From contig OZ076409.1 of assembly GCA_964187785.1 (NCBI GenBank), forward strand, positions 11,224,001 to 11,288,000: a stretch of DNA of 64,000 bases, in the 5' to 3' direction. The notes beneath the pieces were generated by a model. That model searched no databases. It had not been told where the DNA came from and worked only from the letters and a program-made list of their open reading frames with translations. This document shows, piece by piece, positions 12,508-36,479 of the stretch (within the stretch, counting starts at the first letter, position 1; each line of letters starts with the position of its first letter). Made by a program: the position numbers and the translations under genes. The DNA is from Amphiscolops sp. MND2022. Taxonomy: Eukaryota.

Positions 12508-15500
12508 TCAGTCTTCGCTACTGTTTTTTGATGTGTTTTGTTTACTGCAGAAAAGTGAGAAGGCAAATTTCAAGTAATCAAGCAATTCTTTGGGTCCGCC
12601 AAATGAGTATTCTACCTTTTCTTTATCCTTCTCGAAAAACTCCACCAGGGGTCTCCAAAATACAGGAAACCATTCGTCCGACTTGATTTCCTGAAATGAA
12701 TCTTAAATCAAGTGACACCAGGTTTAAAAAGTATTCAGATCGCTTCACGATCAAAAATTTTTCGGTTTCTCACTATTTTCTCAAATCTAGTATCTGAATG
12801 AAAGAGTTTCCAATTTATCAAATGACGCTCTTGCATGTTCTAGTGAATATGGAGCGCTGATTACATGAGAATGTCCATTTATTTCTTCACACGCTATGAA
12901 TGGATACAAACAGGAGGTATGACAATCAGCTGTTACAGGGTGCGACTGTTACAATGGCCTTAGTTTTACACTTTTCCTCCCCCTTAATGGTTCACTTTTT
13001 GCAGACGTATACTGGTTTCTGCGCAATACCTAAAGAACATCTATAGTTCACTTTTAGTATACCGAGTCCTTTTTTTACGAAAGTGTTTCATACTTCTTAT
13101 GTGTATTTTATACCGAAGTCTTTTTTTACGAAAGTAGAGACAACAGGGTCGCCGTTTGGTTTCATTTCCATTGTGAGATCATTTCAAAAATTTGTCCTGA
13201 AAAGGTTCTGCTTGAGTATATATTTTTCGATATTTTGCAACCACGTGACGAATATCTTGCTACTCACTTAGAAACCTATGATCGGAAGTAGTATACGTTG
13301 GTAGGGGTATTCGCACACTTTCGTTTCTCCCTACAGTTTAACATGGAGTTTTTGCAATTTTCTGCAAAAGGTAACCATATAAGGTAACAATTCTCAGCTA
13401 GGGCCACCTCTAAGTTGTGCGGGAGCGGGTAGAATCATTTAGATTAACAATTTGAACTGTATTCGCAATCTGATGATGTCTTTTTACACTCTTAAAACTT
13501 ATAACTGAACAGGCAGTGTAGCTCTAGTGCTTAAAACCGCTGCAGCGGGCTCGATGGTACCGTGATCGAGCCGCACCCTAAGCACTAGTCCTGCACTACC
13601 ATTTTGATGGAAATCAACAATAAAATTGAGCCTGAAAATTAAACACGCAGAGGTTAAAATACCATATTTATTTTGACACTTCGCCACGCTAGTCAATAAA
13701 TTTTCCAGTCAAATCAGTTGTGCGTACCAAAAATATCGTGAGAGAGTTGCAATCAAGCCGGTGATTAATCTTTTCCAATTCAGACGCTAATATGACTTTT
13801 TGATTTTTTCCCACCAAAAAGATGACATATCACAAGTCGATTGAAAATAAAAACCGAGTCCAGAAGTTGCATTTCATTTCAACTGAAAACCTCGTCAGTA
13901 CATCATGACTTCCACTACAAAAGAATTTTCCACTGAACGTATGAGATACCTTCTATACGAGACAAACGAAGTCTTCACACAAAAAACCTGGGACTCTTCT
14001 GATCAAGACGACAGTGTGACAGAACCCATACCCAGAAAAGAATACAATCCATTGAGAAACACAAACCATTTGGTCGAAAGTCTCAAAAAATTCCTCGAAT
14101 GGGTTATAGATTACTCCAACTTGGAATTTTGCGTGGCTCTGCATGCGAAGGAAGACGACGCAAACGAAATGGATATTTGCCAGAGTTATGGAAGACTGCA
14201 CTATCACGTGATACTCTATAGTGTGAAATTTCCCAAAACCTTGGATAAAATTATCAAAAAGAACTTTACCACTACCCTCGAGGAAACCATGAACTCGCAG
14301 AACAACTACAGAATTGAAATGTTCAACACAAATAGTTCATCTTTTCGAAGAGAATTTTTGAGAAACACAAAAACTTTGGTGACACATGGGCCATCTATTC
14401 AACAGCACTTGAAGGGATTGAATCATACAAGCAGCCGCAATCACGTTGACTGTATCTGGGACAAATGTCAAAAAAGTGGGCGGTATGAAGCAAGCCGCGA
14501 CACAATCATCGATCGAACCAAAATTCTAGACAACGTTGAAGAGTTGGAAAAATCCGCCAGTCAGTTCAAACATGTGATACCCGATATCGTCAACTTTCTC
14601 ACCCAAAACAGCTATGGATCCTTCACCAACTCCCAACACAGTTCGGTTTTAAAAGTATCACTCGACCTGACCGACGCTCAATGTTGCTGCCACGACTGCT
14701 GCTTTCCCGAAACACAAACCCCGGAGAGCAGAAACTATCAATTCATTGACGAAGGAACTGTCCTGTTTGAACAATCATTTGATTGTATATTCAGCTAGAT
14801 TTCAGTTGCTAAAAATTTGCTTTCAATCATGTTGTTTTCTGAGTATCTTGATATACAACAAGTAATAAAAAACTTTGATGAACTAGTAATTATTTTCCCA
14901 CAAAATAAGGTCAGCAAAAATGCTTTTCTCGCAGTTTGTCAGGGTATTGACCCAACACGGGACCTGGCAGCAATAAATGTAGAATGTGAGTACGGAGGCT
15001 TGATAGGGCCAGGCAACAGTTTCCTACATCCTTTGCTTCAGAAATTTAAACTTTTCCGTGTTCACGCGGTCTTTCATGATGCATTTGGTTTCATGAAAGA
15101 AAAGTATAATTTGGGACCAGGATATGTTTACACATTGGGTGAGGAACCATTATTCAAGAACAGCTGCCTGTTGGGTCATTTCACCGGCTTGTTTCTTTGG
15201 ATGTATCTAAAACTGACACAATCACAGATTTATTCCGAGTTGCCATTTTGACTAGTAAGCATTCCAAATGTCAGCTGCTAGCTCCAAGCTACCAAACACA
15301 TCACTGCAGCTTTCATTGAATTCGAAAGTTTTCATACAATATAATCATCAGAATCATTTTTGCATTTACCTCGAAAAGATTGATTCTGGTGTCTGTCCGC
15401 TAAACAAATACAGGTTGAGACACCTAGTTCCACTCACTTTGGAAGAACTTCTCCAACTATCGGAAGCATCGAAAATTCTTTGTTCAACCCTAGAATACAA

Positions 15501-18500
15501 CTATAATCTTTCTAAAAAGCGAGAATACCCAGATGCCAAACCATCTCGCAAATAAAAAAGCTAAGGATCAACCAGACACACCAATATCTGTTACTGGAGG
15601 CAGTCTGATTTTTGACAACGACGAAAACGAGAGGCCTCCTTGGAAACTTCAATGCTGTTGTATTAGAAAAGAATGTGAGCGATCGCTCCAAGTCTTATTA
15701 CTGCATTATTTTATCGTCTTTTTGGTTGTGGCAGCAAGTATAGGGTTCTTATTCCTCAAGCAGAGCGAAAACAAGGGCAGCATAGGAGTGGTTGCCATCA
15801 TATCAGCGTACTTAGGCTATATAATTCCGTCACCGAGACAATGAACAAAATAATCAGCACAGATCCCACTGTTTTCTCATGGTAGTTGGACCCAGTGGCT
15901 CGGGAAAAACTTACTTAGTCTCGCAGCTTCTGAAACAGCATCACCAAATTTTCAAACCGAACTTCCAACAATTTCTGTACTTTTATAATCATTTTCAACC
16001 CATTTATCAAGAACTGCAAGTGTTACTGGGACCAAAAACTTTTCATCTTTGTCAAGGTGTTGACTGGTCTCTACTGGACAAGGCATCGGCGTCAAACCGA
16101 CACACTCTCGTCATTTTCGACGATGTCTATCAAGAAGTAGCTGCCGCGAAAGAGTTTTTGAACCTCGTGATTTCCGGCCGACATCAGAAACTACATCTGC
16201 TGGTCCTGAAGCACAATTTGTACCAGCAGTCAACAAACTCCAAAACGATTGATCTGAATGTTACACAATTGTTGTTGCTGAGGAACCCACGAGACACAAA
16301 TCAAATTGACTACTTGGGACGACAACTTGGTTGTCGAGAACTTTTACTCAATTCGTATAAAAGAGCAACGCAAGATGAGTTTGGTCATTTGCTCATCGAT
16401 CTGGATCCCCGGCTGAATGAAAACTTGAGTTTTTCTTCAAACATAGTTTCTAAACCAGCCATTTATTACTGTAACACTTCAAACTCGACAGCAATAAACA
16501 TTGATGATTCCTTCACAACATCTTTATACAATTGAGTTGTTCTCATCTTTCAAACCAATACTAAAAAGACATTTCATCTTACATTGTAGTGACGATATAA
16601 AACTTTTCTGCAATTGCCTTTTCAACATCAAGGAAGGAGCGATAGAGCTCAAAAATGTGAAACCTAGTACTCTCAAGAAAAATAAACTGCTCATTCAACA
16701 GCTCTGTTCACCTAAGATCAGGTTGGCTGTGAAAAGAGAACTACTGGCGTCCAAGCAAGGACAAACTCTTTTACGCCTGCTAAAAACTTCAATATTAAGA
16801 TATCTGAAGCTACAGTGCTATGAGCAAGCCAACAAAGCGGTTTGTACTTGTGCCAGCTGATGTGTACTTCAACAAAGGAGAGGAGAAGGCCATTAACGGC
16901 GGCTTAATTGCTCAACCATCAGTAGCAACATCTGAATCGAAAAGGGCCAAGTTTTCCGAACAAGACCTGAAACAAGAACTTATCAAGGAAGAAACACATT
17001 GCGAATCACCTTTGGAGGTGACCACGAAAGCGAGTCAACTCGATGTTCTAGATCGACTTGCGCCGTCGAATCGTAAAGAAGCAATCGATCAGAATAAATT
17101 GTGGAACATAAATAACAAAATACAAACAATCATTAGTAAATTGATCGAGCTCGGCTTTAGCAGCAGCAAGTTGGAAAGATCACGAATTATATTACAATCA
17201 TTTTTCAAAAATTCGCGACTGTCTCAACGAATTGCTGGAAATACAACTGGACGGCAGTCCAACACAGGTAAACCTCCTAGCATTTCTGAGTGACCTTCAA
17301 GTAGCCAACAAAAAACTGGGTGAAGCATCACTGAATGTGCTGCGTATACTTAAAATCACATATAAACACATCATAGCAAATGTCAAGGCAAAAGAGGTGG
17401 TGTCGTCAGCGGGACAAAACGATTCGACATCGAGTTCACTTTCTTCTTCGACCTTGTGGGTCGAGCGCTTCTGATGACGGGCAATTAGCAGCAGAACTCA
17501 TCAATCAACTCTTGATTCGAGCAGGAATTGAATTAAATCCCGGACCTCTCAAATGTAATTGCTGTAAAAAGCTTTTGGGCAAAAGTACGAAAAAGGCACC
17601 AACTGTTTGGTGTCACGTTTGCGGATGGGTACACTTCAAGTGCAGTGGCTTAAACACACCATTGGATTATCAAAAGACTACCAATTTTCGGTGCCCGTGG
17701 TGTGCCACCAACACTAGATTCGCAGACGAAAGTTCAGACCCGGCACTTTTAACATTGCACAAACTGTACACTTCAACAAGCAGTCACGCCGCTTTCGGCT
17801 CGAGCGAGGTTTTGAGGAAGGCAGCAGCAACAAAAAGAATCAAGAGAAAACAAGTTGACAAATTCCTTTCACAGAGCGAAACGTACACCAAGTTCCGCGC
17901 TGGTATACACAAGTTCACCCGGCTTAAAGTGCAATCTTACCGAATCAATGAAATTTGGTCTGGTGACTTGGCAGATGTGCATCAATTAGCAAAAAACAAC
18001 GACGGCAAGAAATTTCTCTTGGTTTTTGTGGATTGTTTGAGCCGATTCCTCCGCCTGGAAGCAATTGAAATCAAGTCAGCAACGCAAACAAGGACTGCAC
18101 TACAGCGTTTGATACGGAAGCAAAAACCAGAAAAGATTTGGGTGGACAAAGGAAAAGAATTTAAGGGCGAATTTGCCAAGCTATGTGCAGAGAAAAACAT
18201 TACAGTATATAGCACCCACAGTGAGATGAAATCATGTTTGGCCGAGCGCTACATTCGAACTCTCAAGTCAATTTTATTTAAATATTTGCATGAACACCAG
18301 TCGATACATTGATCAACTCCAAAACTTTGTTAACCTCATCAATTCTCGACCTAACAAGACCACAAAGATTGCTCCGAAAAAAGTGACAGAAAGATGTACC
18401 GTACCTCGTTTCGTTATCAGCCAATGCCAACCCAGTGAAAAAACCACGGTATAAGATTGGTGATACAGTAAGGATTCGATTGAAAATCCCCTTTCCACAA

Positions 18501-21500
18501 GGGCTATAAAATTCAGTTTACAGAAGAAATATTTGAAATTGTAGCCAATCCGACACTGAACCCCCCGACGTACACAATAAAAGACAAGGACGGCCAAGTC
18601 ATCGAAGGAAAATTCTACGAGGCAGAATTAGTTTTATTTCGTTACAGTTGAGTAGGTAGCTAGATGACCTTGTACCTGCAATGGAACAAACTTTTACAAT
18701 CAATTTAATTTCCAATGCTTCAATGCAAGTGTTTCCTGCAAACACTATGGCTCAATTCACAACATTATTACCCCATAGAATTGAACTAGCTGGAGACTGG
18801 GAAGTTGCCATTCTAGAGGCATCTTGGCCGGCCAAAGTTAAAAACATTACAAGCGCCGCATTTACGTTGATTTGCTTCGACAAAAAGTCAAAGAGACCAA
18901 CAAGACCGAAACATAATGGAACGATACCAGACGTCTATTATCCAAACGTCGACATTCTGATGACTAAACTGATACAATCAGTGTATCAAAGAAACGACAC
19001 AAACTTCCCAGTTAGTTGGAAAGTTGATCCAGTCAGCGGGAAAATTGAAGTTTTTTTCCACAGTCAAGAGTTGGAAGATCAATTTTGGCTCCTGTTCAAG
19101 TCAAGCGATCTGTCAAACACACTCGGAATCACCGACACGATTTGTTGCACAATTCAAAGCCAACTTGGAAAAGGTTACGCCGTGCAAGGCACTTACCCGG
19201 TCGATCTACAGGGTGGTCGGCATACAATGTTTTTATACTGCGATTTGATTCAAAACGAAGTCTTGGGTGACGCTCAAACAGCTCTTTTGAGGGTCATACC
19301 GTTGAACCAAAGAGATGCTGTTTCCAATGCAACATGCTACAGAAACTTTCAAAAATTGCAGTGGAAAAAACTGACAAGGTCAAATTTTCAATCAATAACG
19401 ATAAGACTCTACGATGAAAGCGGCCAGCTGATGCCTTTCGTCAGTGTTGGACGAACCAATCTCACGCTAGCTTTCCGTCGCCGCAGCGGCCACTCGTCTT
19501 CATTCAACTAAAATCAACAATTCTGAACAGTTGCTAACTAAAAGACCAAAACACAATCCATGGATGCTTACTATGCTTCGCAGAGGACATTCCACGGACC
19601 AGCAAGGCAATTCGGTTCCGGTGCAGGTCTGGGAGCCTTTGCAGTTCGCGTGGGACGGACTGCCATGCCGCTTTTAAAAAAATACGTCGCCCCAATAGTC
19701 AAACAAGTAGGCCAAAATGTGCTAGAAGCCGCTCTACCCGAAGTGGCCAGTCTCATTTCAGGCAAAAAGAAGACAAGAGGGCGATCAAGGATGTCGCCAA
19801 ACGGGTGATAGCAAAAACTATTGAGCCGAGTGCCGCGGCGGTCGGGCGGGCGGCGGCGGCGGCGGCGGCGCAGCCAGAAAACGAAAGCATGCTGAGTTGT
19901 TGAAAGCTCCTTCAACAAAAACAATCATTTCGAACAAAAAGACCCCCAAGAGAAGTCGGGCAGACATTTTGACCAAAGTGAGATTTGCCAATTCTTCCAA
20001 CAGTTGAAGGGAATGAGTGCCAGCACAACCAATTCAATACAATTTCATAGCCGAGCAAGCGATGTAGCTCAACCAGTAACACACAGTGCACTAGACTTTT
20101 GAAAAACCTTCAGTTTTGATCAATTACGAAGGGTCCCACGACCAAGAAGTTTTTCCACAAATGGGGTGTCGAGGACCACAATTGGATTTTATAGTTACCT
20201 CCGACAATAGAAACCTGGTTGATTTGAACAAAATAGTCTTGGACATCGACTGTGCCATCTATAAAGCCGATGGGAAAACGCCTGCCGAAGAAGTTCTTCC
20301 TGTATGTTTTGCAAACACGCTACATAGTTTGTTCTCTCACGCCGAGGTTTTTATTGACGGCATATTGGTTTCATCGAGCAACAATGCATACCACCACGCA
20401 GCATTCATCGAGACGGAAATGACGACCGACCTTGATGCGAAAGCAACTTGGGCTCGATGTCAAGGCTACGAGTACCAGGCAGACAAAACATCAGAGGAAG
20501 AGTTAGCCAAGTGGAAAAATGAAAAATACGAGCAGGCAAAAATCTCGAAAAACAAAATTACGACTGGTTGGAGCGCCCCATATTGACTTTTTCGAATGTG
20601 AAAAAATTCTTTTGCCAGGAATTACACTTCACATACGCCTCCACAGATCAAGCAACGACTTTGTACTAACATCTCTAGACAGCAGCAGTGATGATGAAAA
20701 GTTTGTTGCAATTATTGAAAGGGCATCACTGTTCGTCACCAAAATGGTCGTGAAGGACACTGTGCGAATGTCCATAGAAAAGGCGTTGGTATGTGGTCCT
20801 GCCCATTATCCCTACATTGAGACATTAAATAAAAGTTTCATCATTCAAGCAGGACAAAACAGCTTTGTGAAAGAAAATATTTTTGGAACGGAACCAGCCA
20901 GACGTCTCACTTTGTGCATGACAACAAACGAACAATTCCGAGGAACTAGGAATGCAGATGCCTTCCATTATAAACCCTTTGGCTTGCAGAGACTAGAAAT
21001 TACTCGTGGAAATGGGGTCCCAGTCCCAGGTAGTCCGCTGGACATGAGGAATGGAAAAATGCGAGCCTATTACAACACAATATGTTCACTTGGCTTTGCT
21101 GCGGGTAAAGGAGGAAACGGAATCGCTTACAAAAATTTTGACGATCATTTCGTTTTGGTATTCGATCTGACCTCTAGCAGAGAAGCTTCCAAAAGTCTCA
21201 CCTTATTTCCTGAACTAACAGGAGGTAGTCTCACGTTGAAGTTAACTTTTGAGCAACAATTGGAACAAACAATTGAGCTCTTCCTCATTGCGGAAAAATT
21301 TTGTCAAATTTTCATTACATCCGAAAGAACAGTTCTCAAAAACACGGTATTGTAGCTGTATCAAGTCACACTAATGGACACTTGGGCTCTACAAAAACTG
21401 GCACTCAAATGTAGTCATTTGATAGAAACATTTCGGGGAGTTTGGAGTGCAGACAACTTTCCTCTGATGAACGAGGACGATGCATCACCGTCATTTCAAA

Positions 21501-24500
21501 TTGTCAACACTGAAGCTAGCAACAAACCCGGAAAACACTGGATTCTACTATGCAAAAGAACTAAATCAGGTATAGGTGCTATCATATTTTGGGATAGCTT
21601 GGGAAAAAGGCCGAGAAAATACAAGGTATTGTTCGAACGATTGAATGAAATTTATAAAACAATTGTTGTATTCAACCATCCTCTTCAGAGCAACTATTCA
21701 AATTGCTGTGGTTTGTATTGTATACTTGTTGCACATTATTTACCATTATCGGATAATAACAAAGCAGCTGCACAAATGCTCCCAAAGAAGATGGTTGATG
21801 AGTGTTCATTAATTCGTTTTATAAATTACCATTATAATACTGCTTTCACATTTGTAGTCATTTGATTAATTGATCATTATTAACCACAATCACTTTCTTC
21901 GGCTTCACTAAGTATGAAGGGACACTTTCGTTTTGGTTCTCTGTCATCATCATCATCTCCACAGTAGTCAGACAGTTCATCGAAATTGACAATGTTTGAA
22001 GAATGCTCATCAGCATCGTCATCATAGGGTCGAGACGAGAAACCAGGATCAATAGGACCTGATAAGGAAAGAAAATAAAGTACTCGGTGCTTTAGTTGAC
22101 AGAAATTCGAATACTTAGAGTGATATACATACTGAAGATGGAGGAGGCCAACGAGCGCACAGAGGCGTCGTCACTTTGAGGAAAAACAGACGACGAAGCC
22201 CCATCATCATCATTATCATCATCATCTAACTCAGTGTCATCTTCGGCGGATGAGGATGAGACTGAGTAGGAGCGGGTTGAGTCAGAGAAGTCTGAAAAAA
22301 AGAACGAATAAAATTAACCATTCACACCTTTATGCATAAGATTGAAAATAGGTGAAAGTATTACTTGACTGTTTAAGTGAATGATGTCCGTAGGCCAAAG
22401 ATTTAACACCACAATCCAAGAGAAATCGTTTATCATCAAAGGCGCTTAGGGCGGTTTTGTTCACTGGAACCACGACTAGTTGATGTTGCTGCGATCGAAT
22501 TTGGGTGTTGACCCTGCAAATGTTCACTTTCGATTCTATAATGCTGGTGAACAGATCGTGATTCAACGTTTTTTTCACGCATTTTTGAACTCCTTTGGCA
22601 CTCTGCTTTACGCCACTGTCAAATTTTATACTGTAGAGTTTAGATCTCAAGCAAGTACATTCCAGTAGAATTTGACCATTCAATTCGTCCTTCATGGTTA
22701 GCGGCTTCTTCTTGTTAGTTGCGTCGTACAATTTCTGATTCTGAGGGTAGTCAGACAAATCCAAGAGATTTTTGAAAGATTCCATGTCTGAGTATAGATC
22801 ATCTGTTTCGATTCGATATAAAAGAGAATCAGTATCCTTGTAGACGACAGTTACTTTTTCTCCATAACGTGGCTTCATTTCGTTATAGTGGAAATTATAC
22901 AGCACAATTTTCGATAAGTCCAAAATGGCGGCTCCAACAGGCGTTGGTTTATTCCAGAAAGTTGAGGTTTTCGAAAAATTCAGTGAAACTAGATTGCTGT
23001 GGATTATTTGAAAAGTCAAAAAATTAGGCTTCAGGGTGTAACGTTTGGCCTCGGTAGTATTTGCAACAAACTTAGTATCCCTTCTATGACGTAGATTCTC
23101 CATCGTTTTGCCGAAACAGGCATTAGAAAGGAGCTTGAAAAAATTCTCGAAATCTGTTGTCGCATTTTTTCGCATTTGGGTGTTTTTGGATATGTAGTTT
23201 CCAAGCCAGCAGCTTTGATCGAACTGCAGAACACGATGGAGTTTCTTGACCTTGAGACCTTGCTCCAAATAAAATTTAAGGTTTCTAAAGTGGCATATAT
23301 AAAACTGTTTATCAAATAGCGTTTCAATAAGCTTGGCCACTGGTGAAACTGGAAGATTGAAGGAATTGGCGTAATCCGACAGCCATTCCTTCTTGATTGC
23401 GAGTTTTTCCGGAGCAAGAGGTAGGTCGTTGTGAGATGCATGCAAATGTGCTGGATATTCCAGGTCCACCTCAACGAAAAAACCAACGGGCCCGAAAGAG
23501 TCAGTTTGTAGGATATCCTCTAAAGTCAAATCTTCTCTCCATTTGTAGTTGCCGACAGGAAGAGGTTGCTGCATTGTTCCAGCATATAATGAAGTGACAT
23601 CAAAAAATGCTCCAAACACTGAAGGCTGGGAGGGATCGAAATCTTGCATGTATTGATTGTTAGCTTTGAAGTGTCGCAGGGCGCCGGTTCCATTGATACC
23701 GCCGCGAATAGCCCGCTCACAAAACAGTAACATATCAATATCCGTCAAAACTCCAAGCTCAACTTTGGTGGTGATCAGCATCGCTTCCCAGCTCAAGTTG
23801 GGAGCTGAAAAAAAAATGAGCAGGATCTAGTTGATACTCTTTCACACCCACGTCACGGAAAGCCTGAAAGATGTCTGCGAGGAGATACACATCAAGGGTT
23901 AAATATAGGTCATGATAATCGCCAAAGTCTTTGCACTGCATCAAATTGAACATATCCTTTGCTGTTTGGTACTGATCCTCGGTTATATCAATTTTACCAG
24001 TAAGACTATTTCTCCAAGCATCACCGTATGCTGGAAAAGGATCCGAAAACCTTTCGAAGCTGTTCAAGAAACTGTAGGGAAAATACCCTTTACCGCGAAC
24101 TTTTCGAAAGTCAGCATCGTTCAGATGCGAAAATTTCCTCCTTAAAAGTATGAGCGATGAAGTCTCCATTGTTCTGGCCAAGCTGTCGAGAGATTGGGAC
24201 ATGAATTGAAAACTGTCTAAGAAGCGAATTTCACTGTAAAGCGCAACAACTTTACCGTCCTTGCGTTTGTATTCAGAGACCTTGATGCGAAGGCTAAAAG
24301 AGATATAAATTTCGTCAGTACGCGAGATGGCTGAAAATTTTTCACCAGGGAGAACATTGATATTTTTCAGAATGTGGTGGGAATCATACCTGGAGAGATT
24401 GTGAAAGAACACAGGCAAGAAACGCTTGATCTGAGCCTTCAAATTACACATGGAATGAGCAATCCCAAAAATCATGCCCGATGAGTGGCAGTGATGAATC

Positions 24501-27500
24501 ACCGGGTCATCTTGTATGACGCTTTTGCAAATACAACACTTTTCACCTCTAGTTGAGGCCAGGAATTGCTCTTGTTGAGTTTTAGTGAGCACATCACTTA
24601 GAAATCTGTACCTTTGTCTCTCTGAGTCACACCAGGCATTCCACTTGCGAAGGCAGTTCATCAACTTTTCGATGCAATCTTCTCCGCGGTAAAAAGATTC
24701 ATCGACAACTTTGTTGCTTTGAGAATCAACCAAAACAGCTCCATAGCTCGCAGGTAGCTGTTTCTCAATCAGAACAGTTTTGCTGCCGCTCTGAATAAAC
24801 ATCGGAACGTTGAGAGCTTCTAAATCTGCATAAACGACAAAATGACACTTCTGAGTTATTTCCCAGTTTGAGAAAGTCAGTTTCAGATGCTCACTGGGCA
24901 TCACAATCCTCAAAGGTTGATTGTCATCACAAAGTCGAGCATGTTCCATGAATTTTTGCTTCCCAATAGACTGCATGCAGTTCACGCAAAACTTCGTTTT
25001 GGGACCCTTGGCAGCTCGTTTTGGAGATCTGCATACTTTATGCATGAAAGCTTGAAAATTAGTTATCAGACAATAGTGCGAATTGAAGCCATCCAAAAGT
25101 AAAAGCAAAAAAATCTTTGGATATTTCCCTCTGTTTCTACTTCGATGACAACAGATGAGTCCTCCCTGCTCATCGAAATTAAACACTGTTATGGAGAGAT
25201 TATTGTCGCTTTCAAATCTTGCGATATCCTTAAGTTTCATAGGCATCATTGACTCGCTGAATTTGAGACGATTAAATTTGTCACGGTATTGAGAAGGCCT
25301 TTCGCGATTTTTGGACCGAGGATAAAGGTACGCGAGAATACAATATATGAAGCAGAAATTGTCAAACAAGTTTTTGATATTAAGCAGACATTTACGCATG
25401 CCCTCAAGTTTTGCTGGGGTTGGCAGAAAAGAAGTTCCAGCAAGTGATCTTGTATGACAAATTTTGATATCTAAAGATGAAAGCTGTTTAAGAATCCAAC
25501 CTGAACCACCGGAGCAGAAGACGTTGAGTTGTCTCAAAACTTGGTCAATCAACTCATCAAAGTCTGCGTTGTCGATCGACTCAACAGCTCGCACCAAACG
25601 TGATGAGAAGTGGGGAGATATAGTTTCTTCGGTACATGGTTTTGATAATACAACTTGCAAACACAGACCAACGCGGGATATTCCTTGGTTGGTTATTTCC
25701 TGGTCAATCAAAAGTCCGATATTGGCTCGATTACTCCATATAAAGGCCAATGGATCAACACTTTCAGTTTGAACATCTAGTCGCAAAATTTTGAAGTGAG
25801 AATTCAAGGCTAACACTGTTTTAGAAACCTGCGGAATCGAGGCCCAATTGACTTCTGTTGTAGTTGTCATTGTGGACGAAGATACAACAGGGTGCTCCCT
25901 GCTCTTGTGCGCGTGGAGATAGGACTCGTTTCCAAAAATTTTTGGGCAAGCATTACATTGAATGCTTTTATTGAATTTGTGAATATTCCTCAGATGGCGG
26001 ATCAAATTCTTCGAAGAAGTACATGTTACTTCACAATGTCCACAACTGAAAGACCATAGAGAGGGCTCTTTTTTGTGAACAGCTCTGATATGTTTGAAAA
26101 GAAGTCGTTTGGTTTGGAAGTTGTCTCGGCAGTCTGGGCAAGGAAACATTCTGGCAGTGGGTCAATCAAAAACTGAACGTTAAATGATGGGTGAAAATTT
26201 GAAAAAGTATTCCATAAACCAAAAAAGAACAAAAGAAGTACTTTTCGAAACATGCCAGATCAAATTTAATTTTCACCCATCATTAGAGTAGATGTTAGAG
26301 AAGTAGGTTATTCAAATGCATGTCTATCATTCAGTAGCTAAACTTTAAAGGATTCTCAGTTGTGTTAATTATATACCAAGAAGAATACTTAGGTTCACCA
26401 AAGTTGAACGAAAGTCGAGTTATCAAGGTTCATCGACAAATATAGACAACTGAGAAGAAAATTTGAAGTCCAACATTATCGAAATCAATTCAATTGACAT
26501 TGCATAATTAATTACTTCTAGGCAGACTCGTAAATGACCAGATTCTCAGTTATGTTTATTCGATAGAGAAAAGATCGTTTAGGTTCATTATTAAAGTTGA
26601 GCTGAAGTCAGCTTATCAGGGTTCATTAGCTTATTTGGACAATGTGTGAAACAGTTTTGACATTATCAAAATGAACTCGGAAAAACTTCGGGCCCTTTGA
26701 AAAACAAAGGTGTCAAAAAATTTGAAAAGTGACAAAAGATGAGATAAAAGTCGGCTGGAAAGGAGTATAAAAGGTGCACACTTGGAATATATCTTGATTG
26801 AAGTTCCTGTTGAAAAACGCTCAATATTGGTTTTTAAAACTCTGCATCGTTGAAATTTCCAAATCATCAACCATGAACAACTTCTTTTCAATATTGATTC
26901 ATGAATCAAGAGAGGTCACGGTTCGCGAAACACGAAAACCCGGACAAGAGAGCAGCATCGAAATAAAGGTTCTCAAGAAGCGAGTTGACGAATTTGGCGA
27001 AGCTGGCGGGGTGATCGGCACCGAGGCTTCCTTCCCTGAGAAGGCCTTCACGAAACTGATGAGAATCAACTGGACATTAATTTTCTTCGGGATGCTGGGC
27101 AACGGTGAATTGCCTCAGGAGATGCTGGTGCCGACCCCCGCCGACGAGGACGCAGGGCTCCGTATGGAATCCCGTTTCACGTCAATAATTTTCTCTGAAG
27201 TCGGTAAGCATGAACATATTAAATAGGATTACTGTTGGTCAAAGAGAGAGGGACTCAGGCAAATTAGTCTTGAATCGAGCTTGAAAGATCACTAACATAT
27301 TCAGTGCAACCCTTTTCTTTGGGCGCTTGTGCCTCACAAGACGATGAATTTATCAAGATGACTTAGGTTGTATTGAAGTGCTTTGTTTCAATTCGATAAC
27401 ACTGTTCTCATTTCATGTTTAGGAGAGAAGACAGCATTCAGGGCGTCAGTGAACATATACAACTCGAACATACATACAAAGAAGAGTGTGTATGTTACAA

Positions 27501-30500
27501 TGAAGGCCTTCCGTTGGGAGCCCGAATGGTCACAATTCAATCGAGTTGGGCAAGTAATTACGCTGCATCATTGTGAGATGATGCGGCTGATTACGGAATA
27601 TAACGCCTATCTGGATAGAATTGTCGCTCCTTCTGGTAAGCCAACGGGAGATAGCACTTGCGAGGAGGAAGACCGACCCTTGTCACTACTGAAAGCTGGG
27701 ACGTCAAAGCGCACTAAAAAGACAGGATCTTCCTCCTCGCAAGTGCAAAAGAAAATACCAAAAAAGACGGCCCTTGCGGAAGGGACTTCAACGACGCCCG
27801 CAGTTGATGCCCCAAAGGAGACCACTAGCGAAGAAATCACTATCGAAGATAGTGAGGATGAAAACTAATTGTATAGATACAATTGATTTGTATTATTTTA
27901 TTCAGTACCTAATTGTATATTGTTATATTACCTTAAAGTTTTGCTGCTAGTTAGCAAATGACGCATCAAGTTTGAAAAATACATCAAGTATTTCGAGTAA
28001 AAACAGTGAAAAAAGAAAGTCATCATGAGAGCGGTTTTCAAAGTGACTGCGATCAGATTCGATCCGCGTTCAAAATACATTTCAAATTTTCAAATTGATC
28101 TAAAGATGAAAATTGAAGTAGGGAAATGTCCGAAAGTAGAAATTCATTTTAATTCCAAAATTGGTTTGAGCAAAACCCCTTGCTCCAATGCTTACTAAAC
28201 GCGCCGTGCCGGCGCGCTGTTCCTTGCGGCCCAGTATTACGAATTACATGAATTCCATCGTGGTCTACACCACTAGGCTACAGGCGCACTGATTTAGAAT
28301 GAAATTGGAAGACTGTAATTAGCAGCGAGAAGAATTGATAAAAGCGATGAAAGCAGTATTGGGAATGAGAAACATCAAATAGAATTAAATTGAGAATACA
28401 GCTATTCGGTGTGGTGGCCGTTCAAACTTCGATGACATTGAATAACTCTAGGGTTGAATTGAAACAGCATTGCAATTCAATCATTCCAAAACACATAGCA
28501 TTGAATAAAATCAAACATTGGAAAGAATGATTAGCAGTAACACTTACATCGATAGTTCGAGTTTGTATAAATCGAATAAGTTCAAGGTTAAACAGAAATT
28601 TGCGAAAAATGCAGAATTTTGTGGAAAAACAATAGGGAGAAACGAAAGTGTGCGAATACCCCTACCAACGTATACTACTATCGGACATTTTGAAAAGAGA
28701 TCAAAAACGTTTTTGAGAACGGGATTTCAGGGATAACTTCAGTGTCGGTGTAAAATGAGAAATGACACAATTCAATAAAACTTCCTAGTCAGATTTTTGA
28801 CACCGCTAGTCAGCCAATTAGCGCCCGCACATGAATTTTCTTCAGTGATTTCATTTGCGATTCAAATTGGCGGTAACAGATAGAATGTCCAAAATCAGAA
28901 TTTCCTTAAAATCTTGCATGAGGTTTCAAGATGCATATCAAAAATTTGCAACTGTTTCCCTTGTAAACCTCACACAGTACAAAAAATTCCAGTCTTGTTT
29001 TTCTTGCGAAACTAAATCAGGTTATGATTCAAAGATAGCTGAAGTCAAACATTTAATATTTTGGAGAAATTTTTTTTTCAGCGAAACAGCTATTTTATTT
29101 CTGCGATAGCAGGAATATAGAAATCTCAACGACGCAACTCTTTTTTCAGCCGAGTTTTCGTTCGTGATTCCGAGTACCTACTGAAAAATTCAGATGGTTT
29201 GTTCGGTAGTGATTATAACTGTGAGATTTAAATTTCTCAAGCTGCCGACAACAATTCGTTTCTCGTGCGATGAAACGAGCGAGTGTTAATTATGCATTCG
29301 TACCCCGAGTTATTGAAATGAAGCGAACGAGTGTTAACTGGTAGTTCGCCGAGAGCTTCATCTGCATTCAAATGTGAATGCGAAACTTCGTCCACGCTTA
29401 ATAGTTATATTTTCTTTAGTCCGAGAAGAATTAAAAGCGGTGTAAACTAGTACAGTGATTAATTGCGCGCTATATAATGATTAAACAGGATTTTTTGGTT
29501 ATTCCAGATATGTTTTATTAATGAACATGAAAGCCTAAAAAGCAAATAATACTGTGCCCCAGAGGGGCCTATTTGTAATTAGCGATTAGCAGAAACATTA
29601 GTGGTGTCAAAACCCCATTCTTAGTACACCAAAATGAGTAGTGGTGCCTATTCGCGGTTACAACGCAGCTGCTGTAATTGGAGATATTGATTACTTTTGT
29701 CTCTGCTATGAATGTGTAGAGCTTGAAGACCCAGCTACCCACGATTACGGAGCCCAGAATGTCTAGTGTGTAGTGATTGTGGGCCAGCAAGATGAGCGTC
29801 GAGATTGCCAGGGCTGTGAGGCCGTTGATTTTGCGCGCCAGACACCATTTGGGTGGCATGTAGTGGGAAAGCTAATGGCCAACAGAAATGTCAGTAATTA
29901 ATCAATTCATTATGTAACCAGAAGCTGCTTTCCTTTTTACATGTGAAAATATCCTCGTTTTCTATGATCCCCAAATCTCATTTTCTTCTTTCCTAATTCT
30001 CTTGTTAGTAAATGCAATAGCGTGAGCAAAAACAACAGAAGTACAAGAATCGTATTTTAAAGTGTCTATTTTAAGACTATTTTTTCTTTGGATATTTTTA
30101 TCCTGTTGAAATCAAGGCGCGACATACCCTTTGGGTTCTTTTCTGTTTTCTCCCCCACCACCAAAATTTTTGAAAATAACTTTCCTTAAAAATTTTAGAC
30201 TATCCTAATTAAAAGTAAAACCTTCTTTCATAACAGGAAGTTAACTACTATTAGAGTAGTTTTCCGCTTGAACAAAACATTGTTCACGCATTTTGACTAT
30301 AATTATGTTCGTCTTAAGTGTCTGTTGATGACTCAAAACAGGAAGCTGTTGATTTTTTCATCAAAAAAGCGTGACTGCATGTGGAAAAAGTGTGAACAAA
30401 GTTTGTATCTGAATCCTAAACTATCACCTTGAGAATAAGTTTAAAACAGAAGCTTTCTGGTTTGTATTCAAATCTATTTGTTATAATATTTTCACTAATT

Positions 30501-32879
30501 TTCCAAAAAAAATTTGGTGGTGGAGGGGGGGAACAGAAAAGAGCCGAATCGTGATTAGCTACGTCACATACCGATAGCGCCCTGACTGCAGGAGCAAAGC
30601 CAAGCGGAGCGACGTGCCACTACTGGTCCAGTGGCTGGTTTTGACGATGGCCGAGTCATAAAACCAATGTTTTGACTCCATTTTATTTAGGAGATTCCAA
30701 CCTAGGAGATTTTGACATGTAACCAGTCAAAATCATGCACAGCATCTTGGTGGCCTGTCAAAACTCGATTACATAATGCATGCTGCATAATTACATAATT
30801 GTGACATGCCTGATAATAAATGATGACTGCCATGAGAGCGTGTCCGCTGAAGAAGTAGTTTCCACACATGTGGCCCCCGAATATGGAGAGTCCCGCTGCG
30901 CTCCACAGGAGTAGCACCCGCTGCATCACTTCCGGGAACCCGGTCGCCTTGGGGGCACACTCCATCGTGTACTGGGAGCGGGGCAGCACGTCGGCCCAGA
31001 TACAGATGATGCGCAGCATGAAACAGATCGACTGAACCACCAGACATCGTCGGGCCAGCACGAAACGTCTTCTGTGGAGAACCACGAAAATTATTAACCT
31101 GTAGCAAAAATGTATCTTTTTTTCAAAAAACCAACATTCGTTGATATTCTAATTTCTTGCTCCGGCGAAGATTTTAGTTCAGTGTAATAATTTAAAAAAG
31201 CTTTGATAATTTCCAAATGACAAAATTTATGCTTCCGAAGGTACAGGAAAGACCAAAAGGTCCCATATTTAGTGTTTTTTTCGGCACTATGCTACTTTTT
31301 GCACATGACGAAGTCAATGTGCATTGCAGTCCAGCTAAGTAAGTTTTTTTTCCACTATAGTCAATTTCATAATGAGCGCTTTTTAGATAAAAGCCAAAAC
31401 CCCAGAGAGATTCGAACCTGCAGCCTCCCGATTGCACGGCATGTGTTGACCACTGTGCCATAGGGACGTTATTGAACAAAGTTGAACTGTTGAATATATA
31501 CGCATGCGATTAAAATAATATGTACGCATATTAAAATAATCGATGTCTTCGTCATGTGTTGCGAAGCACCGCTTCGCCTCTGTGTTGATGTTTTAAACCC
31601 GAAGTGTCCCCTTTGATTTTAGCAGGAACAAACTGTTTTTGAGGAGAATAGGGATCCCCTTAGGAGTTCTTGGACACTGTGTGACTTATCGAAGTCCGCA
31701 CCGACTTCGGCACAAATTTCGGGTTCTTGGGACCGATGAGACTTTTCTCAATAATTGCGGAAAAGACTTCGGCTCGGTGCGACTTTTTACAATTGTGTTT
31801 TAACTAAACGTTTGTTGCTTCGGTTTTCTAATGTTTTCAGTTTATAAAACATGTTTTGAGACTAAAGGGTCTTATCCTTTCTTACCCTTTCGGTAATTTC
31901 GGCACAGACTTTTTCGAACAAAATTTTCAGAGAAGACAAATTCGGCTCTTTGCCAGGAAGACAAATTCTTGAATTTTGTCAAAGGGTACCCCTTTGAGTT
32001 ATTTGAAGTTTTCGGTTTGTAAAAAACGTTTAATGAGCCTAAAGTGTCTCTTGGGTTTTTCGGCATTATGCGACTTTTTTACCAAATACTTTTTTTTAAA
32101 AAAAATTATTCCCAAATGTTTCCAAAAGTTGTTCCTTGAATATTTTTGAGCCTTAGATATGGCGCCGACTTGGGCCGTTCCCGGCTTGTTTTTTTTAAGA
32201 CCAACGAAGTGACAGATTTTATAAGCTTTATAAGCTGACTTGAACTAACACTAAATGCCACACTATTTCTACTAACACTTGAGATAGAGGTTAATTAGGC
32301 TGTTTTTAGGTCCCCTTTTACGTTTTTCGGCACTATGCGACTTCCCGGGGACCAAAAAAAATTTCGAATTTTTCATTTTTTTCCTCATGCGGGTACTGTA
32401 GAAGAGAATACTTGACACTTTGAAGTCCTTTTGCTATTTTTGAGCCTTAGATATGGCGCCGACTTGGGCCGTTCCCGGCTTGTTTGATATTTTCAGTTGC
32501 TATTTCAGTTTGATATTTTCTAATATAGCCATGTTCATTGAATGTACAAAAGTTGTGACACAAACCCAACTTGATACGAGAATAATAGAAATTCCGATAA
32601 AGGAGCCGCTACGTGCTCTATTGGACGAAGATCCAAAATGGAGTCCCTCAAAACAGGAGCTTCGATGTTGAGTCTTTCGTTGGACATGGTGATGGTAAAC
32701 ATAACGAAGAGTTCAACTAGCTGGAAAAGTAAAAAGCTGCATGTAACCAGACGTATTTCACCAGCTACATGTTTTCCTTTGTACTTCCTCGGTTTTTCAG
32801 GCTCAATTTCACCAAGTTTGTCCGAATTATCCGCGCATGGAGTGTCAAGAAGGGCTTTTATCTCTTCTGAGTCCGCCAT
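12508..32879 (-). CDS. Sphingomyelin synthase family (SMS/SGMS-like) gene, 4 coding exons, ~320 aa: 32879-32566, 31098-30810, 29871-29695, 12690-12508
   Basis: Motifs ERL..PVLRD (D1), RRCLVVQSICFMLR..LP (D2), CGNYFFSGH (D3), HYTLD (D4), and C-terminal FWRPLVEFFEKD. Exon lengths 314+289+177+183=963 nt join in frame. Intron 2 needs a GC donor (CAG|GCATGT); intron 3 contains the Polinton. Confidence 0.85.
13287..13333 (+). repeat. Polinton left terminal inverted repeat (47 bp)
   Basis: AGTAGTATACGTTGGTAGGGGTATTCGCACACTTTCGTTTCTCCCTA, the exact reverse complement of 28633-28679. Confidence 0.97.
13905..14798 (+). CDS. Polinton accessory protein with HUH-like motif and Cys-rich C-terminus
   Basis: 297-aa ATG ORF; FCVALH...GRLHYHVILY resembles the HUH motif II of rolling-circle Rep/NS1 proteins; CCCHDCC near the C-terminus. 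Function is inferred only. Confidence 0.7.
   Translation: MTSTTKEFSTERMRYLLYETNEVFTQKTWDSSDQDDSVTEPIPRKEYNPLRNTNHLVESLKKFLEWVIDYSNLEFCVALHAKEDDANEMDICQSYGRLHYHVILYSVKFPKTLDKIIKKNFTTTLEETMNSQNNYRIEMFNTNSSSFRREFLRNTKTLVTHGPSIQQHLKGLNHTSSRNHVDCIWDKCQKSGRYEASRDTIIDRTKILDNVEELEKSASQFKHVIPDIVNFLTQNSYGSFTNSQHSSVLKVSLDLTDAQCCCHDCCFPETQTPESRNYQFIDEGTVLFEQSFDCIFS
14829..15251 (+). CDS. Parvovirus/adintovirus-type phospholipase A2-like protein
   Basis: YGGLIGPGNS (cf. Ca-binding loop YLGPGN) followed by HAVFHDAFG (cf. catalytic AxxHDxxY); first ATG at 14829. Confidence 0.7.
   Translation: MLFSEYLDIQQVIKNFDELVIIFPQNKVSKNAFLAVCQGIDPTRDLAAINVECEYGGLIGPGNSFLHPLLQKFKLFRVHAVFHDAFGFMKEKYNLGPGYVYTLGEEPLFKNSCLLGHFTGLFLWMYLKLTQSQIYSELPF
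15268..15555 (+). CDS. Small Polinton protein, possibly PC4-like
   Basis: 95-aa ATG ORF in the tightly packed cluster; beta-rich pattern ending VPLTLEELLQL. Confidence 0.55.
   Translation: MSAASSKLPNTSLQLSLNSKVFIQYNHQNHFCIYLEKIDSGVCPLNKYRLRHLVPLTLEELLQLSEASKILCSTLEYNYNLSKKREYPDAKPSRK
15533..15844 (+). CDS. Small Polinton membrane protein (two predicted TM segments)
   Basis: Hydrophobic stretches VLLLHYFIVFLVVAASIGFLFL and IGVVAIISAYLGYII; the stop overlaps the ATPase ATG (ATGA at 15841). Confidence 0.65.
   Translation: MPNHLANKKAKDQPDTPISVTGGSLIFDNDENERPPWKLQCCCIRKECERSLQVLLLHYFIVFLVVAASIGFLFLKQSENKGSIGVVAIISAYLGYIIPSPRQ
15841..16535 (+). CDS. A32/FtsK-like genome packaging ATPase
   Basis: Walker A GPSGSGKT, Walker B LVIFDD, GRH motif. 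The likely start ATG 15841 (MNKIIST) is 1 nt out of frame with ORF 15879-16535. Confidence 0.93.
16501..16860 (+). CDS. Conserved basic Polinton protein
   Basis: FCNCLFNIKEG...LKKNKLLIQQL...KRELL pattern resembles the small basic protein found near the ATPase/integrase in Mavericks. Confidence 0.6.
   Translation: MMIPSQHLYTIELFSSFKPILKRHFILHCSDDIKLFCNCLFNIKEGAIELKNVKPSTLKKNKLLIQQLCSPKIRLAVKRELLASKQGQTLLRLLKTSILRYLKLQCYEQANKAVCTCAS
16820..17474 (+). CDS. Polinton protein of unknown function (one frameshift near 17225)
   Basis: ORF 16820-17293 (MSKPTKRFVLVP...) continues in the frame of 17232-17474 (...LWVERF*). Confidence 0.55.
17474..18651 (+). CDS. Retroviral-type (rve) integrase with N-terminal 2A-like peptide and PHD finger; several frameshifts
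   Basis: LIRAGIELNPGP; PHD C..C...CHVCGWVHFKC...CPWC; DDE motifs WSGDLAD, WVDKGKEF, AERYIRTLK. After a shift near 18300 it continues RYIDQLQNFV...IGDTVR...FTEEIFEI...EGKFYEAEL..., ending at TGA 18651. Confidence 0.92.
18681..19511 (+). CDS. Minor capsid protein (penton)
   Basis: FTINLISNASMQVFPANTMAQFTTLLP...GDWEVAI; MFLYCDLIQNEVLGDAQTALLRVIP; ITIRLYDESGQLMPF, typical of Polinton penton. Confidence 0.88.
   Translation: MEQTFTINLISNASMQVFPANTMAQFTTLLPHRIELAGDWEVAILEASWPAKVKNITSAAFTLICFDKKSKRPTRPKHNGTIPDVYYPNVDILMTKLIQSVYQRNDTNFPVSWKVDPVSGKIEVFFHSQELEDQFWLLFKSSDLSNTLGITDTICCTIQSQLGKGYAVQGTYPVDLQGGRHTMFLYCDLIQNEVLGDAQTALLRVIPLNQRDAVSNATCYRNFQKLQWKKLTRSNFQSITIRLYDESGQLMPFVSVGRTNLTLAFRRRSGHSSSFN
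19560..20007 (+). CDS. Gly/basic-rich core (protein VII/PZ-like) virion protein, frameshifted
   Basis: MDAYYASQ...FHG..RQFGSGAGLG...AMPLLK start; across shifts near 19780 and 19850 it continues to a basic tail ending RSRADILTKVRFANSSNS*. Contains a (CGG)n run at ~19850-19870. Confidence 0.7.
20013..21355 (+). CDS. Major capsid protein (double jelly-roll, hexon-like), two frameshifts
   Basis: ATG 20013 (..HSALDF), then NTLHSLFSHAEVFIDG...NNAYHHAAFIET, ILLPGITLHIRLHRS and FVLVFDLT motifs in ORFs 20116-20586 and 20519-21355. Confidence 0.88.
21374..21865 (+). CDS. Adenain-like cysteine (maturation) protease
   Basis: IVNT...PGKHW (His), FWDSLG (Asp), LQSNYSNCCGLYC (Gln, Cys). Confidence 0.93.
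   Translation: MDTWALQKLALKCSHLIETFRGVWSADNFPLMNEDDASPSFQIVNTEASNKPGKHWILLCKRTKSGIGAIIFWDSLGKRPRKYKVLFERLNEIYKTIVVFNHPLQSNYSNCCGLYCILVAHYLPLSDNNKAAAQMLPKKMVDECSLIRFINYHYNTAFTFVVI
21880..26149 (-). CDS. polB: Protein-primed family B DNA polymerase with N-terminal C2H2 fingers; one frameshift at the T9 run (23808-23816); predicted spliced C-terminal exons 22291-22133 and 22058-21880
   Basis: Three C2H2 fingers; GSGW region; DNFCF..HYCLI (OTU-like Cys/His); ExoI YADLE; HHCH..G..AH..CNL (endonuclease VII-like); HNLSRYD; FLDS; KGYFPY; DVTSLY; KLLSNACFGK; YKDTDS. The unspliced stop is at 22330. Confidence 0.93.
26766..26772 (+). promoter_or_regulatory. Candidate TATA box of the right-hand Polinton gene
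   Basis: TATAAAA about 100 nt upstream of ATG 26873. Confidence 0.4.
26873..27868 (+). CDS. Spliced Polinton gene (26873-27203 + 27423-27868, 258 aa), probable PC4-like ssDNA-binding protein
   Basis: Donor G|GTAAGC at 27204 and acceptor TTTAG|GA at 27422 join the two ORFs in frame. RASVNIY...VYVTMKAF...VITLHHCEMMRL follows the PC4 pattern; basic then acidic low-complexity tail. Confidence 0.65.
28633..28679 (-). repeat. Polinton right terminal inverted repeat (47 bp)
   Basis: ...CCCCTACCAACGTATACTACT followed by the TSD ATCGGA. Confidence 0.97.
30132..30546. mobile_element. MITE-like element (~410 bp); related copies at ~35230-35632 and ~39903-40640
   Basis: Inverted ends TCTTTTCTGT..CCACCACCAAAATTTTTG / AAATTTGGTGGTGG..ACAGAAAAGA; interior clearly similar to 35230-35632. 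Confidence 0.65.
31301..31582 (+). mobile_element. HINE-like family B with an internal tRNA-like module; second copy at 47558-47840
   Basis: Sub-terminal IR CACATGACGAAG / CTTCGTCATGTG; 3' hairpin GCGAAGCACCGCTTCGC; minus-strand A box TGGCACAGTGG and B box GGTTCGAATC. Confidence 0.7.
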
Positions 32880-36168: not shown

Positions 36169-36479
36169 CAAACTTGATATCCAAATAGTATAATTTCAGA
36201 TAACTCAGTCGCTAACCAGCTCCTTGGAATCAACGTTAGCACGCTGTCGTATAAAACGGGAGCATCTAAATTCAATCTTTCGTTGGACATGGTGACAGTA
36301 AACATGACAAGAAATTCGACCAGTTGAAATAGTAACAAACTGAGGATGAAAGAAAACACCTCATTTCGCACTTGAGTTGGCTTGTAAGAATGCTGGGGTA
36401 CTTTTGATTTATCTGTCTTCTGGTAACTTTCCGGGCTTAATTCTGCCTTGCCAGCAGTAAGTTTGACTTCTTTGTCCAT
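36169..36479 (-). CDS. Duplicated (alternative) first coding exon of the SMS-family gene
   Basis: MDKEVK...LLFQLVEFLVMFTVTMSNERLNLDAPVLYDSVL...GYQV, homologous to exon 32879-32566; donor TG|GTGAGT in the same phase (2). Confidence 0.8.

Follow-up and report, generated by a model that had tools for sequence, protein, structure and literature searches.

A damaged Polinton in the last intron of a sphingomyelin-synthase-family gene of Amphiscolops sp. MND2022

The locus and its host gene

The window analysed here is a stretch of 64,000 nt from Amphiscolops sp. MND2022 (assembly GCA_964187785.1, contig OZ076409.1, positions 11,224,001 to 11,288,000). On its minus strand it carries a gene of the sphingomyelin synthase (SMS) family, and the last intron of this gene contains a Polinton/Maverick element of 15.4 kb, as an earlier sequence-only reading of the same DNA had claimed. 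Positions are those of the window, and the parts of the host gene are as follows.

36169..36479, minus strand: putative exon 1B (alternative or duplicated first coding exon), with a phase-2 GT donor
32566..32879, minus strand: exon 1A (first coding exon)
30810..31098, minus strand: exon 2, with motif D3 (CGNYFFSGH), ending at a GC donor
29695..29871, minus strand: exon 3, with motif D4 (HYTLD) and a match to PF14360 (PAP2_C, E 2.7e-8)
12691..29694, minus strand: intron 3, 17,004 nt, GT-AG, phase 0, containing the Polinton
12508..12690, minus strand: exon 4, the final coding exon, encoding the C-terminal tail

Exons 1A, 2, 3 and 4 join into a single open frame of 320 codons plus a stop, which bears out the apparently intact host gene of the sequence-only reading. 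The intron sizes given there were reproduced as well: introns 1, 2 and 3 measure 1,467, 938 and 17,004 nt, and intron 3 without the element and one copy of its target-site duplication (TSD) measures 1,605 nt. At the last junction, a GT donor follows exon 3 after 29695, TTTCAG precedes exon 4 at 12690, and the phase is 0. Two details had to be amended. The donor of intron 2 is GC and not GT (CAG/GCATGT, window 30809, minus strand), and the junction that it forms agrees with homolog P0001. The length of 1,467 nt for intron 1 holds for exon 1A; with exon 1B in its place, this intron may measure 5,070 nt.

Sequence comparison confirmed the exon at 12690-12508 as the last exon of the SMS gene, because the Convolutriloba macropyga ortholog (P0002/P0078) and P0003 continue directly from exon-3 sequence into exon-4 sequence. 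Exon 4 matches P0002 with 61.5% identity (tblastn, E 2e-17), shares 32 of 50 residues with P0078, and has one match only in the whole genome. Its alignment scores against P0078 and P0003 were 190 and 127, compared with 19 and 23 for the read-through of exon 3 (19-26 overall). The preceding exons point to the same family: exon 2 is 74% identical to the SMS2-like P0002, the closest named protein, and exon 3 shares 41 of 59 residues with P0078. The match to P0002 also makes an acoel host likely. Homolog P0001 reads through after its exon-3 sequence into unrelated sequence, which would fit an intron at the equivalent position there too.

The gene has the PAP2_C domain with the His-His-Asp triad in motifs D3 and D4 (exons 2 and 3), the triad being that defined for the family in the accessible text of PMC11663969. 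D3, D4, the triad and a C-terminal W..P...FFE tail are common to SMS1, SMS2 and SMSr as described there and to C. macropyga XP_075245449.1; the exon-4 version of the tail, WRP..FFE, aligns with human SMSr. In contrast to the family pattern, Asn replaces the usual Asp of D3 and D4 lacks its final His, and both departures recur in every acoel-like homolog of the alignment but the C1 paralog. The duplicated first exon is a further difference from SMS1, SMS2 and SMSr. Exons 1A and 1B lie in tandem, are both open and in the same phase, and are 45-49% identical to each other (dN 0.41, dS 1.5 over 66 codons; dN/dS about 0.27). Exon 1B would splice to exon 2 in frame and is, with 53-56% identity, slightly closer to the orthologs than exon 1A (49-51%). 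The two probably serve as alternative first exons, each under its own promoter. Three weaker SMS-like paralog loci lie elsewhere in the genome; the C2 paralog has no intron at the intron-3 position and is hence uninformative on intron loss there.

Ends and gene content of the element

The element spans 13287-28679 and is a Polinton/Maverick, bounded by identical terminal inverted repeats (TIRs) of 47 nt and by ATCGGA on both sides, as previously read. Its features, apart from the predicted tail of the protein-primed-type DNA polymerase gene pPolB that is treated below, are these.

13287..28679, no strand: Polinton/Maverick element, 15,393 nt
13281..13286, no strand: left copy of the TSD, ATCGGA
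28680..28685, no strand: right copy of the TSD, ATCGGA
13287..13333, plus strand: left TIR, 47 nt, starting AGTAGT
28633..28679, minus strand: right TIR, 47 nt, identical to the left TIR
13905..14798, plus strand: ORF1, 297 aa, open, with a predicted HUH/Rep-like fold, H-x-H and a C-terminal CxCxxC
14829..15251, plus strand: conserved 140-aa gene, with homologs 39-50% identical in 9 of 9 distant elements
15825..16535, plus strand: A32-like packaging ATPase (PF04665, E 6.7e-6, above cut-off), with a frame break near its start
17380..18451, plus strand: rve integrase (PF00665, E 4.6e-11) with an N-terminal finger, presumably PHD-like; 3' part frame-broken
18681..19511, plus strand: likely minor capsid protein, open, Atlas score 0.97-0.98 to viral clusters
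20095..21355, plus strand: gene for the double jelly-roll major capsid protein, with an interrupted frame
21374..21865, plus strand: putative adenovirus-like maturation protease, open (PF00770, E 0.0012)
22330..26149, minus strand: pPolB (PF03175, E 6.5e-8; PF00096; PF02945), frame broken
26873..27868, plus strand: two small ORFs near the right end, without a Pfam match

The assignments differ in the evidence behind them. The PF03175 match of pPolB is above cut-off and covers the N-terminal piece; the C-terminal piece had no Pfam or PDB match. For the major capsid, the model of a natural homolog (P0083, 93% identical) resembles the capsids of iridovirus, PBCV-1 and mavirus (E 7.5e-16). The minor capsid was recognized by language-model features: its matching clusters include a Sputnik V18/19-like one in which 26% of members carry PF21507, a feature match only. 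At 19 bits the protease stays below the curated PF00770 cut-off of 21.3, and its position and motif fit. The PHD label of the integrase finger is our assumption from its Cys/His pattern. The 140-aa gene may be PLA2X-like, judging from a motif resemblance; a Pfam search with it gave no match. The two small ORFs had no homolog in the nine distant loci fetched, some of which may not reach that end. A search of IMG/VR with capsid patterns for free viral relatives matched 14 stretches, none of them confirmed.

A 2A/StopGo-like GIELNPGP (window ~17527-17547, plus strand) precedes the integrase finger and is found in 18 of 21 close copies. It is absent from the nine distant elements, whose integrase seems to begin just before the finger, and lacks the usual 2A Asp, so it may be a chance occurrence.

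In both structure and content the element resembles the animal Polintons/Mavericks, or adintoviruses, as described in the parts of PMC8097293 and PMC8502044 available to us. The published size range of 12.7-24.6 kb includes its 15,393 nt, and it shares the (AGT)2 ends, the 6-bp TSD and a TIR length within 46-1,447 bp. Common to both are also pPolB, rve integrase, ATPase and major and minor capsid genes, along with a protease gene that is a candidate here, as well as the erosion of the majority of copies by host mutation. Its pPolB is of the pfam03175 type by which alpha adintoviruses, or group 2 Polintons, are defined (PMC8502044); for the PLA2X gene of that group, 14829-15251 is a candidate. 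Homing-endonuclease inserts in polinton pPolBs (PMC11161782) and an HNH insert in nematode pPolB2 (10.1101/2023.08.22.554363) have been described and are not used for the claims made here.

As stated before by the sequence-only reading, pPolB lies on the strand of the host gene and the capsid cluster on the opposite one; the ATPase, integrase and protease genes share the strand of the capsid genes. The element keeps a distance of 1,015 nt from the host donor and of 596 nt from the acceptor.

Sister copies and the state of the window copy

Searches with both element ends gave at least 40 matches each and at least 34 end pairs within 50 kb, among which at least 24, including the window copy, are 15-16 kb apart. 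We fetched 20 of the other 23 full-size copies, giving a sample of 21 with the window copy. The 20 sisters have 20 different flanks; 19 have a perfect 6-nt TSD and 14 have identical TIRs. Because such perfection is the family norm, the ends do not single out the window copy or mark it as specially recent. Its 93 private substitutions rank third among the 21 copies, and its 17 private indels rank first. Pairwise distances between copies have a median of 0.95%, and the window copy differs from the others by 1.0-1.5%.

Intact, potentially active Mavericks have been characterized by uninterrupted core ORFs throughout (PMC8097293, as far as accessible). Using openness thresholds set from the frame lengths seen among the copies, the window copy keeps 4 of its 8 core frames open, those for ATPase, integrase, major capsid and pPolB being interrupted, and none of the 21 copies sampled has all eight open. 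Thus, the "entire" endogenous virus of the sequence-only reading is full length and has its capsid genes, and it is not intact. The private coding changes of the window copy (14 synonymous, 39 non-synonymous; pN/pS 0.90, compared with 0.80 over all copies) look neutral. Changes shared by at least two copies have a pN/pS of 0.31 and thus show selection, a contrast that is typical where an active source leaves dead insertions behind. Methylation-type decay was not seen, C>T changes being 1.2-fold at CpG.

More distant Polintons (L069, L071, L077, L079, L121/L137) often adjoin or nest in other Polintons, recognizable from another pPolB or from pieces of ATPase or protease genes less than 20 kb away.

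Intronic insertions among the sisters

To place the intronic setting, we roughly screened both flanks of the 20 sisters, ~12 kb each, for host exons. This screen detects only exons recognizable by Pfam; from 598 candidate frames the top 290 were chosen, 29 were dropped by eye because they overlapped other frames, and 261 were scanned. Two of the 20 sisters lie in introns with exons on both sides, a number that is a floor and holds no information on orientation bias. One (G000:C2:1889711-1905113; L063-L064, L134, L135) sits in a CstF-77/Suf intron of 19,815 nt with pPolB in sense orientation, the other (G000:C9:18997947-19013350; L051-L052, L122, L123) in a GNE intron of 22,558 nt with pPolB in antisense orientation. 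Both host introns have GT-AG ends and in-frame junctions. Exons on one side only, which were not counted, encode an Argonaute, a DEAH-helicase-like protein, a cyclin and an MFS protein near other copies.

A published acoel genome, taken as a comparator only, has 29,351 genes with 3.2 introns of 2.5 kb each, i.e., 235 Mb of 1,103 Mb (PMC9911081, partial text). At this intronic share of ~21%, about 4 of 20 copies would be expected in introns. The intronic site of the window copy is therefore ordinary: large mobile elements are expected in introns where about one-fifth of a genome is intronic, and sisters do likewise. Rarity of the setting is not supported. Polinton DNA between host-gene exons is also known from Caenorhabditis elegans eri-6/7, where a ~5-kb intronic remnant accompanies lower expression of downstream exons (10.1101/2024.01.15.575659, partial text). 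There, however, only remnants are present and expression effects were measured, whereas the insertions described here are full length and read from sequence only.

Several neighbours of the sisters are worth recording. GNE encodes UDP-GlcNAc 2-epimerase/ManNAc kinase, and its presence in an acoel-like animal may bear on the distribution of the sialic-acid pathway. The Argonaute exons (ArgoL1, PAZ; L104:2253-6253, minus strand, G000:C1 ~95.05-95.06 Mb) end ~6 kb from a sister Polinton, which may lie inside that gene too; the 5' exons of the gene were not found within the screened flank. A frame that stays open for 1,735 codons or more (L127:1-5205, plus strand, G000:C4 ~66.93 Mb), ~2 kb from another sister, combines a ZNFX1-like/UPF1-like helicase with a PARP catalytic domain.

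A predicted spliced tail of pPolB

On the host-gene strand, downstream of pPolB, two short introns and two exons are predicted.

22292..22364, minus strand: predicted intron at the pPolB 3' end, 73 nt, phase 1, with its donor within the last pPolB codons
22133..22291, minus strand: predicted first tail exon of pPolB, acidic, 159 nt
22059..22132, minus strand: predicted second tail intron, 74 nt, phase 1
21880..22058, minus strand: predicted last exon of the tail, with DPGF and CPFI motifs common to distant elements

The introns have a GC content of 27% and 32%, compared with 50% and 43% for the exons. Splice sites are retained in 19 of 21 copies for the first intron and in 21 of 21 for the second. 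We also modelled the tail in distant elements, whose pPolB pieces are mostly 43-68% identical to that of the window, constraining the second acceptor to just before DPG, leaving the phases free and omitting L079. The best-scoring model had an equal layout in 7 of 8 distant elements (8 of 9 with the window copy), with two phase-1 introns 58-85 nt long and with shared DPGF and CPFI motifs; for L067 no in-frame two-intron model was obtained. Hence, two short phase-1 introns are predicted to add an acidic tail to pPolB, a feature common to distant Polintons of this genome, and the acceptors at 22291 and 22058 seem to serve the element's own splicing. That host-sense acceptors exist within the element had been proposed; these two look real and conserved.

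Vertebrate Maverick genes have been described as intronless (PMC8097293, partial text), in contrast to the two introns predicted here. For animal Polintons we found no spliced pPolB tail in the literature, mainly open-access text and without the supplements of PMC8502044.

A predicted Rep-like first gene

ORF1 had no significant Pfam or PDB match by sequence. Homolog searches returned 37 and 26 homologs, none of them named, and the six clusters looked up were nameless. It has 137 matches in the genome, from which nine distant loci were chosen; all nine are Polinton-like, and ORF1 leads the same gene cluster in each. ORF1 occurs also in short tandem arrays (G000:C7:65439854-65447283, C4:35000438-35004140, C12:37490786-37498892).

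Its predicted structure may be of the HUH/Rep type. Language-model features (Atlas) gave a score of 0.93 to Rep_OBD clusters, with low recognition. Among viral structures (BFVD), the best matches of the ORF1 model were parvoviral NS proteins (E 1e-4), and the best PDB match in Foldseek was pMV158 RepB (E 0.04). Comparison with AAV5 Rep (VIA) gave Z 6.9 with an rmsd of 4.4 over 138 aligned residues, a value tied with unrelated ferredoxin-like chains. An H-x-H is present in most rows of an alignment of 20 ORF1 sequences and lies on the central strand of the model (mean pLDDT 66.6). The catalytic tyrosine of HUH/Rep proteins is expected on the helix after the fourth strand. No tyrosine was found among the invariant or near-invariant columns of the 20 sequences, and the window protein has none on the expected helix. 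Together, these models lend moderate support to ORF1 as a disarmed Rep-fold DNA-binding protein.

HUH genes have been reported for Mriyaviruses and Zora/VC218 Polinton-like viruses (10.64898/2026.06.19.733378, partial text), and the parallel is an HUH-type gene, here predicted, in a small integrating double-stranded DNA virus-like element. Those viruses, however, are protist-type and related to nucleocytoplasmic large DNA viruses (NCLDV), and their HUH protein was interpreted as a rolling-circle initiator, whereas ORF1 stands beside pPolB in an animal Polinton and lacks the conserved catalytic tyrosine. A Rep-fold gene is not among the Polinton genes described in the available parts of PMC8097293 and PMC8502044. 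Nor did we find an HUH-fold gene for animal Polintons in the literature searched; the supplements of PMC8502044, with unnamed "Adintoc" genes, and the figures of 10.64898/2026.06.19.733378, of which Figure 2 shows HUH shares by group and includes Mavericks, were outside this search and may bear on the question.

Consequences for the host gene

The window holds a damaged copy of a multi-copy Polinton family, inserted with a 6-nt TSD into the last SMS intron. We consider it probable that splicing of the 17-kb intron also takes out the copy and that the gene therefore remains functional. Normal function of the host gene has good odds in our view, and substantial trapping of its transcripts rather poor ones. 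The element's integrase would have inserted the copy with little site preference, and the insertion would have survived because both host splice sites were left intact. The host pre-mRNA would be read through 17 kb and the intron then spliced out whole, and the copy would have evolved as dead DNA since its insertion. A fraction of the transcripts, probably a minor one, may be lost at host-sense acceptors or poly(A) signals of the element. Counted on the host-sense strand of the element were 42 pyrimidine-rich AG sites and 10 AATAAA words, neither being denser than in native intron 3; per kb, this is 0.65 AATAAA against 1.9 in native intron 3 and 1.8 acceptor-like sites against 2.5. Several points weigh against this account. 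An intact exon 4 says little in its favour, since too little time has passed since the insertion for decay of an unused exon: ~0.6% private divergence would correspond to about one change per unused exon of 183 nt. Two of the host-sense acceptors look real and strong, the three SMS-like paralog loci could make a weakened allele tolerable, and the 5-kb intronic remnant in C. elegans goes with lower downstream-exon expression (10.1101/2024.01.15.575659). Finally, 6 of 11 indels of 1-2 nt in the window copy touch base runs of at least 3 (background 28%), and some of them may be assembly errors.

The strongest rival is a gene trap or weakened allele, in which a large share of host transcripts would be spliced to 22291 or 22058 or would end at a poly(A) signal of the element, so that the enzyme would be truncated or the RNA would decay. 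Both acceptors are conserved in distant elements and, like the 10 AATAAA words, have the orientation of the host gene; eri-6/7 provides a precedent, and the SMS paralogs could cover for the loss. However, both acceptors are phase 1 and exon 3 ends in phase 0, so a fused transcript would meet a stop after 21 or 66 codons, and each acceptor has its own donor 73-74 nt upstream. In addition, the sister in CstF-77, a gene essential in animals, has the same orientation and flanking exons in frame. On balance we regard such a trap as unlikely. A smaller chance still, compatible with the preferred account, goes to a rare or heterozygous allele kept by the assembly, in which case an empty allele would supply the function and tolerance would not be demonstrated. 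The assembly holds one version of the locus, as exons 2-4 and the left flank each match at one place, and the copies are young, ~1% apart; the 93 private substitutions and 17 private indels would nevertheless need time in the lineage. Flank searches of the genome assembly found no second, empty version of this site; the left flank has no other match, and the right one turns into a common repeat from ~110 nt outward.

It is very improbable that the host retains the copy because antisense or small RNAs read from the host promoter would target the capsid module. About 8.5 kb of genes from ORF1 to the protease would indeed be antisense in the host pre-mRNA, but such RNA is the default of any intronic copy, sisters occur in both orientations, and there is neither a sign of special conservation nor an excess of CpG-type mutation (C>T 1.2-fold at CpG). 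Least credible of all is that the SMS gene ends in exon 3 at the read-through stop 29569, or that exon 12690-12508 belongs to another gene, alternatives that the sequence-only reading had named itself. The frame does stay open for 41 further codons past the donor, and an AATAAA lies ~50 nt beyond the stop. Orthology nearly refutes this, as P0002, P0078 and P0003 go directly from exon 3 to exon 4 and the read-through has no match in the orthologs or in P0001, whose own read-through differs.

Other features of the window

Outside the SMS locus, the window contains a tandem duplication of ~1.55 kb with 98-99% identity (3657-4787 and 5213-6340), a single-frame RING-H2 gene (8562-9179, plus strand) and an ORF with a PAN domain (58651-59211, minus strand).

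Significance

The insertion is real and mostly ordinary, being a damaged copy with the usual ends whose sisters also occupy introns, in genes under stronger constraint. The location in an SMS intron by itself matters little, intronic Polinton DNA being already known from C. elegans eri-6/7 (10.1101/2024.01.15.575659), and novelty rests on two predicted features of the element, the pPolB tail and the Rep-fold gene, not on the intron. If real, the tail departs from the intronless description of Mavericks, and ORF-based annotation would miss it.

More tentatively, and with somewhat less than even confidence, acoel Polintons could form a distinct lineage. Its fixed first gene would encode a Rep/parvovirus-NS-like HUH-fold protein with a disarmed cutting tyrosine, acting as a DNA-binding regulator of element ends or promoters, and two host-type introns would switch an acidic tail onto the DNA polymerase. 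The many young intronic copies would then be a natural experiment on splicing around 15-kb inserts, with acceptors facing the host gene in half of the intronic insertions. A Rep-fold gene would in any case link Polintons with replication proteins of the parvovirus/CRESS type, provided that the predicted fold of ORF1 is correct. Full-length Polintons with known flanks, in conserved host genes and in both orientations, provide a clean and checkable case for asking whether complete Polintons are bypassed by splicing in an animal.

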